Below are positions 35,152 through 36,313 of a stretch of 64,000 nucleotides of DNA, in pieces. The stretch's first letter is position 1. Every line of letters starts with the position of its first letter. The stretch is from Escherichia coli. GTDB lineage: Bacteria; Pseudomonadota; Gammaproteobacteria; Enterobacterales; Enterobacteriaceae. A model generated the notes under the pieces. The model did not search any database. It had not been told where the DNA came from and saw nothing but the letters and a program-made list of their open reading frames with translations. The DNA is taken from the NCBI RefSeq assembly GCF_003334355.1, contig NZ_QOWP01000001.1, one strand, 5' to 3'. Position numbers and translations under genes: made by a program.

Positions 35152-35269
35152 CGTTCACCTCATTCGCTATATATCACCATATATAGCGATATTTTAGGCA
35201 AAGAACGACTTTTGCGCACGCTATTTTTTCATGCTTGTTTAAGACGTAATCCAGTAAGAGATAAACCTA

Positions 35270-36157
35270 TCAGGAGAGATATTTATCGAACCATTTCAGT
35301 GTCCTTTGCCAGGCAAGATCGGCGGCAGATTTGTCATAACGGGGCGTGGAATCATTATGGAATCCGTGATTAACCCCCGGATAGATATACGCCTCATAAA
35401 CCTTATTATTGGCTTTCAACGCCGCCTCGTAAGCAGGCCAGCCCTCGTTGATTCGGGTGTCCAGTTCCGCGAAGTGGAGTAGTAAAGGCGCTTCAATCTT
35501 CGCCACATCGGCAGTGGGTGCCTGACGACCATAAAACGGCACCGCGCAGGCCAGTTCCGGATACGCGACAGCCGCCGCGTTCGATACGCCACCGCCATAG
35601 CAAAATCCGGTAATACCCACTTTGCCTGCCGCTTGCGGATAGCGTTGCATAAACTCAATTGCGGCAAAGAAATCATTCATCAGTTTGGTTGGATCAACCT
35701 GCTGTTGCAGCTCACGACCTTTATCATCATTTCCCGGATAACCTCCAACGGAACTTAAGCCGTCAGGTGCCAGGGCGATATACCCCGCCTTCGCCACTCG
35801 CCGTGCCACATCTTCGATATACGGATTCAGTCCACGATTCTCATGCACCACCACCACGGCTGGCGTTTTGCCGCTCATTTTTGCGGGTTTCACCAGATAA
35901 CCCCGTACCTCGCCGTGACCATTTGGCGAAGGATACGTGATGTACTCAGCAACAATCTCCGGGTCGGTAAACTCTACCTGAGTCGCCAGCGCATAATTTG
36001 GCTTGAGCAAATCAAACAACGCTAATGCCGTCATCCCGCCCACCGCATACTTCGCCGCAAGGTTGAGGAACTCACGTTTCGAGATTTTCCCGTGAGCGTA
36101 ATAGTCGTAGTAATCCAACAACTCTTGTGGGAAATCTTTGGCGGTTAAACGCGGCAT
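35270..36157 (-). CDS. yghX: Dienelactone hydrolase family protein (intact reading frame)
   Basis: ATG at 36155-36157 with upstream GAGGAG SD gives MPRLTAKDFPQELLDYYDYY...; ~295 aa uninterrupted; contains GFCYGG nucleophile elbow. Confidence 0.8.
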   Translation of the reverse strand: MPRLTAKDFPQELLDYYDYYAHGKISKREFLNLAAKYAVGGMTALALFDLLKPNYALATQVEFTDPEIVAEYITYPSPNGHGEVRGYLVKPAKMSGKTPAVVVVHENRGLNPYIEDVARRVAKAGYIALAPDGLSSVGGYPGNDDKGRELQQQVDPTKLMNDFFAAIEFMQRYPQAAGKVGITGFCYGGGVSNAAAVAYPELACAVPFYGRQAPTADVAKIEAPLLLHFAELDTRINEGWPAYEAALKANNKVYEAYIYPGVNHGFHNDSTPRYDKSAADLAWQRTLKWFDKYLS

Positions 36158-36313
36158 CGTTGCACTCCTCAACTGGTGTTTTTTTAAGCAAAGCATAAGC
36201 ACGTGTTTTTGCCCAGTTTTTCGTCACTCTGTGAGCCAGACTACGGGATACGCGCTGGCGAATCGCTAAACTAGAAACATTGTTTCGAAATTGAACGGTG
36301 GAAAGGAGAGGTC

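Follow-up and report, generated by a model that had tools for sequence, protein, structure and literature searches.

The yghX gene of Escherichia coli, the family of its product, a crystal structure, the pseudogene status of the gene in K-12 and the peptide YqhI are all already on record. The K-12 CDS carries the flag 'frameshifted' in RefSeq, that of MG1655 is flagged 'pseudogene', and the 'pseudogene yghX locus' of W3110 has served as an integration site in metabolic engineering (PMC7677707). YqhI, a small protein of 47 aa, has been detected in K-12 (PMC6001520), and the crystal structure, PDB 4ZV9, belongs to a protein of E. coli O157:H7 Sakai described as uncharacterised (PMC8533429). The purified O157 protein, called 'EcoDLH', had no phosphotriesterase activity (bioRxiv 10.1101/2025.10.30.685675), which for this protein is a promiscuous and not a native activity. 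According to an old proposal based on the GXCXG motif, yghX encodes a cPHB polymerase (PMC3709699); no report of a native YghX activity was found in the searchable literature. The 'yghX/modA overlapping gene' of two papers cannot be the yghX locus.

In the window (the whole stretch of 64,000 nucleotides analysed here), the region under study is, with very high probability, an intact allele of chromosomal yghX, predicted to encode a hydrolase of 295 residues with the dienelactone hydrolase (DLH) fold and DLH-type catalysis, and lost in K-12 and about 23% of other complete E. coli genomes by one or two small deletions. Reading the sequence directly, together with the ORF list, gave an uninterrupted frame of 295 codons and a TGA stop on the minus strand (35270-36157), running from the ATG at 36157 to the TGA at 35272-35270, and the GFCYGG nucleophile motif falls on residues 184-189. 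The preliminary description, which had reported a continuous ORF of ~295 codons with this ATG, a GAGGAG Shine-Dalgarno sequence and the GFCYGG motif, was exact in its coordinates and features (Table 1). A longer frame from a GTG at 36202 (310 aa, from the mechanical ORF list) was rejected because RefSeq, the NF041440 profile and all homologues begin at the ATG.

Against the NCBIfam profile NF041440 'YghX family hydrolase', for which the curated cut-off is 460 bits, the protein scored 585.3 bits (E=1.8e-176), with residues 3-294 aligned to positions 1-292 of 292. Pfam DLH PF01738 (alpha/beta-hydrolase fold) matched residues 84-294 over the entire model (1-217 of 217; E=6e-48), the Pfam 'YqhI-like' segment matched residues 1-36 (E=8e-20), and PDB 4ZV9 was ~99% identical to residues 59-294 (E=1.2e-160). 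On the E-values of NF041440, Pfam DLH and 4ZV9 a chance ORF was rejected, and all three agree that the gene is yghX, encoding a protein of the dienelactone hydrolase family, as had been claimed from the sequence. The yghX DNA of strain AMSHJX01 (WP_001297303.1, named 'YghX family hydrolase' in RefSeq) is 100% identical to that of the window.

Table 1. Features of yghX and its product in the window
Feature	Position	Strand	Basis
yghX CDS, YghX family hydrolase (DLH fold)	35270..36157	-	Frame, profiles, structure match
GAGGAG Shine-Dalgarno, 7-nt spacer to yghX ATG	36165..36170	-	Sequence read directly
Codons 1-58, conserved N-terminal extension, candidate Tat-type signal peptide	35984..36157	-	Homologue conservation, motif and 4ZV9 alignment; inference
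Codons 26-31, S-K-R-E-F-L, twin-arginine-like with K-R	36065..36082	-	Alignment of 34 relatives
TA dinucleotide, codon 37, deleted in K-12-type alleles (first frameshift)	36048..36049	-	Alignment
C, codon 157, deleted in K-12-type alleles (second frameshift)	35688..35688	-	Alignment
Cys186 codon (TGC), nucleophile in G-F-C-Y-G-G	35600..35602	-	Aligned with ClcD 123 (Cys in wild type); Cys in 31/34
Asp233 codon, triad acid	35459..35461	-	Aligned with ClcD Asp171; invariant, 34/34
His264 codon, triad base	35366..35368	-	Aligned with ClcD His202; His in 31/34
Glu106			Aligned with ClcD Glu36
Arg148			Aligned with ClcD Arg81
Asn268			Aligned with ClcD Arg206; Asn in 28/34 relatives

The gene lies at its usual chromosomal site in E. 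coli, between the divergent gpr and yghW-hybOABC, with hybA, hybO and yghW downstream and gpr, yqhA and yghA upstream. A promoter scan of the 156-bp gpr-yghX spacer detected no consensus sigma-70 site for yghX. Just before the Shine-Dalgarno sequence (36171-36173, minus strand; -14/-15 from the ATG), two adjacent substitutions give GT in the window and AC in K-12. The yghX-yghW spacer contains a perfect 11-bp inverted repeat, TCGCTATATAT-CACC-ATATATAGCGA (35164-35189), which ends 13 nt before the start codon of yghW. This repeat was flagged as terminator-like on the plus strand only, that is, antisense to yghX and yghW, and it may serve as an operator or form a structure that influences yghW translation.

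Over a region of 1,061 nt, alignment of the window with K-12 revealed 13 substitutions and, in K-12, two deletions, one of 2 bp (codon 37) and one of 1 bp (codon 157). The K-12 pseudogene (b4658) is thus an orthologous locus with 98.5% DNA identity and the same first 36 codons, but its frame ends after 47 residues, whereas the window allele encodes the full 295. Because the window keeps the bases at both deletion sites, its allele is not of the K-12 type. The preliminary description had taken yghX for a frameshifted pseudogene in K-12 and had proposed a pairwise alignment as a check; this status is borne out by the RefSeq flags and the two deletions, and the alignment located the frameshifts and found the K-12 allele not to be identical to the window. 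The further claim that the sequence is not K-12 also holds, given 13 substitutions and 3 deleted bases within 1,061 nt and the fact that the closest 24-kb matches of the window are wild isolates (99.9-100%); the window comes from an ordinary non-K-12 E. coli. The finding marks the window as non-K-12 and shows that the strain keeps a gene lost by K-12, but in itself it matters little, since the gene, its structure and its pseudogene status in K-12 can all be found in public databases.

The K-12 frame reads MPRLTAKDFPQELLDYYDYYAHGKISKREFLNLAAK, then CGRRDDGISVV, then a stop, and this 47-residue frame-0 product is YqhI letter for letter (window 36017-36157, minus strand; 3104-3247 of the retrieved K-12 locus). 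Judged by its sequence, YqhI is the translated stump of the broken yghX. Since the stump is translated in K-12, the translation start of yghX is active, and since YqhI is the frame-0 product of the frameshifted gene, the Pfam family 'YqhI-like' (PF23678) describes the N-terminus of the YghX hydrolase and not an independent small protein. The origin of YqhI as a pseudogene stump is a caution against reading function into YqhI or the Pfam family 'YqhI-like'.

The two deletion sites were surveyed in 5,426 complete E. coli genomes, all of which matched the 1,061-nt yghX query. Alleles were counted with short queries centred on each site, so that the other allele remained unmatched under the 28-base word requirement of megablast. 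At the 2-bp site in codon 37, the K-12-type (deleted) allele was recognized in 1,248 of the 5,426 genomes and the window-type allele in 2,785, and the genomes left unclassified there presumably carry mostly divergent alleles; one B2-type allele that was read keeps the TA, but two substitutions close by prevent the short query from matching it. At the 1-bp site in codon 157, the counts were 1,198 (K-12-type, deleted) and 4,222 (window-type), together accounting for 5,420 of the 5,426 genomes. About 77% of the genomes are free of both K-12 deletions, including some with an allele identical to that of the window. Intact yghX, in at most ~77% of genomes, is the majority state of E. coli, and the K-12-type pseudogene is common to ~23% of the complete genomes; the rarity implied by the preliminary description, in which intact yghX was treated as a distinguishing trait, must be abandoned in view of these counts.

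K-12 and ~23% of the other complete genomes have lost yghX through the 2-bp deletion (codon 37), to which most of them have added the 1-bp deletion in codon 157. The 2-bp deletion occurs alone in ~50 genomes, and one of them, Ecol_448, has an allele that is otherwise identical to that of K-12 and flagged frameshifted, which indicates that the 2-bp deletion preceded the 1-bp deletion. The intact state seen in the window is probably ancestral. When the three missing bases are restored, the K-12 allele differs from the window by eight synonymous changes and a single non-synonymous one (A177T, Thr being the commoner state), and the pseudogene is thus young. Carriers of the K-12-type allele were isolated from humans, pigs, chickens, a duck and seawater, which marks the lesion of K-12 as a naturally occurring lineage allele, present in ~23% of complete genomes, and not a laboratory artefact; specificity to laboratory strains was ruled out by the allele counts. 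With ~23% of E. coli genomes lacking a working copy, there must be at least some niches in which the gene can be dispensed with.

Other lesions were also encountered in the survey. In NCTC9041 (NZ_LR134296.1, 2248-3097 of the retrieved locus), all that is left of the yghX CDS is its last ~96 nt, which adjoin IS1F upstream of mdtM, far from hyb; this loss is an IS-associated rearrangement or deletion. The frameshifted allele of LR-50 is one base shorter than that of K-12 and probably carries a further deletion beyond the K-12 pair. The notion that all indel-bearing alleles are frameshifts was rejected, as two records with odd match lengths are annotated as intact and have their indels outside the CDS.

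In ClcD, the DLH of Pseudomonas, Cys123 is the nucleophile, Asp171 the acid and His202 the base of the catalytic triad, Glu36 restrains the resting cysteine, and Arg81 and Arg206 bind the carboxylate of the substrate. Residue correspondences were taken from an alignment with the Pseudomonas DLH chain 4u2c_A (ClcD numbering, positions counted by hand), and conservation was assessed in 34 representative relatives with at least 36% identity. The Cys-His-Asp triad is present in YghX at the positions of ClcD 123/202/171 (Table 1). A Ser-Asp-His triad, as expected in the preliminary description, is wrong for this family, but a triad does exist, as Cys186-Asp233-His264, and its cysteine lies inside the GFCYGG motif that had been pointed out there. 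By analogy with the DLH scheme, we infer that Cys186, activated by His264 and Asp233, would attack the carbonyl of an ester, lactone or thioester, and that the resulting acyl-thioester intermediate would be hydrolysed by water, as in the chemistry of ClcD. Glu106, at the position of Glu36, would restrain the cysteine in the resting enzyme.

That YghX is a true carboxymethylenebutenolidase (EC 3.1.1.45), acting on dienelactones from chlorocatechol breakdown, is very unlikely, although some sources give this label to relatives, the Pfam DLH model matches, and the triad and the equivalents of Glu36 and Arg81 (Arg148) can all be aligned. The match to ClcD is distant (E ~1e-14), and the arginine pair of the ClcD-like enzymes is incomplete, Arg148 corresponding to Arg81 and Asn268 standing in place of Arg206, as Asn does in 28 of the 34 relatives. 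Around yghX lie genes for hydrogenase-2 and aldehyde reductase and none of the catechol pathway, and neither a conserved operon nor an aromatic-degradation context was seen at the two distant-relative loci examined. Since one of the two carboxylate-binding arginines is lost and the catechol-pathway context is missing, 'dienelactone hydrolase' appears to name the fold of YghX and not its substrate, and the natural substrate is probably not a dienelactone. Very unlikely, too, is the idea that yghX is on its way out, either not expressed or decayed in function here as well, with a frame that simply has yet to break. Its loss is tolerated, as the 1,248 frameshifted genomes, the strain that lost most of the gene in association with IS1 and the shortened LR-50 allele all attest. 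However, 37 synonymous but only six non-synonymous changes separate the window from the B2-type allele (95.6% DNA identity; dN/dS 0.044), and strong purifying selection acts on intact yghX. Across genera of Enterobacteriaceae, conservation extends over the whole length of the protein, including the triad and even residues 1-58, orthologues with 85-92% identity being found in Citrobacter, Pseudescherichia, Enterobacter, Kosakonia, Leclercia and others, and translation in K-12 still begins from this start region. Selection and the conservation of residues give good support to the earlier proposal that this strain would encode a functional enzyme, its activity being a prediction.

The N-terminal 58 residues read MPRLTAKDFPQELLDYYDYYAHGKI-SKREFL-NLAAKYAVGGMTALALFDLLKPNY-ALA|TQ. 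The chain of 4ZV9 aligns from residue 59 (A for the T of the window) and matches from Q60, leaving residues 1-58 outside the aligned part. Compared with the Tat motif S/T-R-R-x-F-L-K, the window protein has S-K-R-E-F-L-N, followed by A-L-A at residues 56-58. In the 34 distant relatives, the positions of K27-R28 are occupied by RR in 27 and KR in three, F30 is conserved in 29, and the mature domain is preceded by an A-x-A-like site (A58 in 25). A change of K for R in a twin-arginine signal can still support export in known cases. The TIGR01409 and Pfam TAT_signal profiles had no significant match to the window protein, and thus it is the motif that carries the Tat reading.

We put the chance that YghX is exported by Tat, with SKREFL as a twin-arginine motif bearing a conservative K-for-R change, at about even to somewhat better. 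A fuller version, in which YghX is a Tat-exported periplasmic cysteine hydrolase and its long signal, with the conserved n-region (…DFPQELLDYYDYYAHGK-I-S-K-R-E-F-L…), fulfils a separate function such as binding a chaperone or partner, is put forward tentatively, at slightly under even chances. The competing view, that YghX is cytoplasmic or membrane-tethered and that residues 1-58 form a functional N-terminal domain or an anchor instead of a cleaved Tat signal, is a serious though lesser possibility. It would accord with an n-region that is unusually long, its 25 residues being almost invariant across enterobacterial genera and far more conserved than usual in signals (TAKDFPQELLDYYDYYAHGK does not vary among 11 genera-level orthologues), with the window protein having KR and not RR, and with the profile scores, the best relative reaching 16.4 bits against a TAT_signal cut-off of 16.7. 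The hydrophobic stretch is weak (maximum Kyte-Doolittle mean of 1.55 over 15 residues) and contains Asp49, which has been counted for this view; a weak stretch followed by a conserved P-x-x-A-x-A is, however, typical of Tat signals. RR-x-F-L is moreover the family consensus (27 of 34), and the crystal chain aligns only from just past A-L-A, both of which argue for export and against a cytoplasmic or anchored protein.

The signal-peptide reading is the sole part of these results that is absent from public databases and papers. If it is true, YqhI and its Pfam family would represent the orphaned first two thirds of the YghX signal peptide. To our knowledge, YghX is missing from the lists of Tat substrates, which were compiled for K-12 with its broken copy of yghX, and it may be an unrecognised Tat substrate.

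In short, the protein encoded in the window shows no difference of substance from the known YghX of E. coli (WP_001297303.1, NF041440, 4ZV9), being the product of the same gene at the same locus. Residue 177 is Ala in the window allele and Thr in the K-12, B2 and O157 alleles, and V69 and S135 of the window are F and N in 4ZV9. The next closest solved structure, the putative DLH of Klebsiella pneumoniae (PDB 3F67; E=6.8e-24), has the nucleophile motif GFCWGG and belongs to a paralogous branch. Pseudomonas ClcD (PDB 1DIN, 4U2C and others), a distant match in sequence, shares with YghX the DLH fold family, the Cys-His-Asp triad and the equivalents of Glu36 and Arg81, whereas it is without the 58-residue N-terminal extension, and its chlorocatechol pathway context is absent around yghX.
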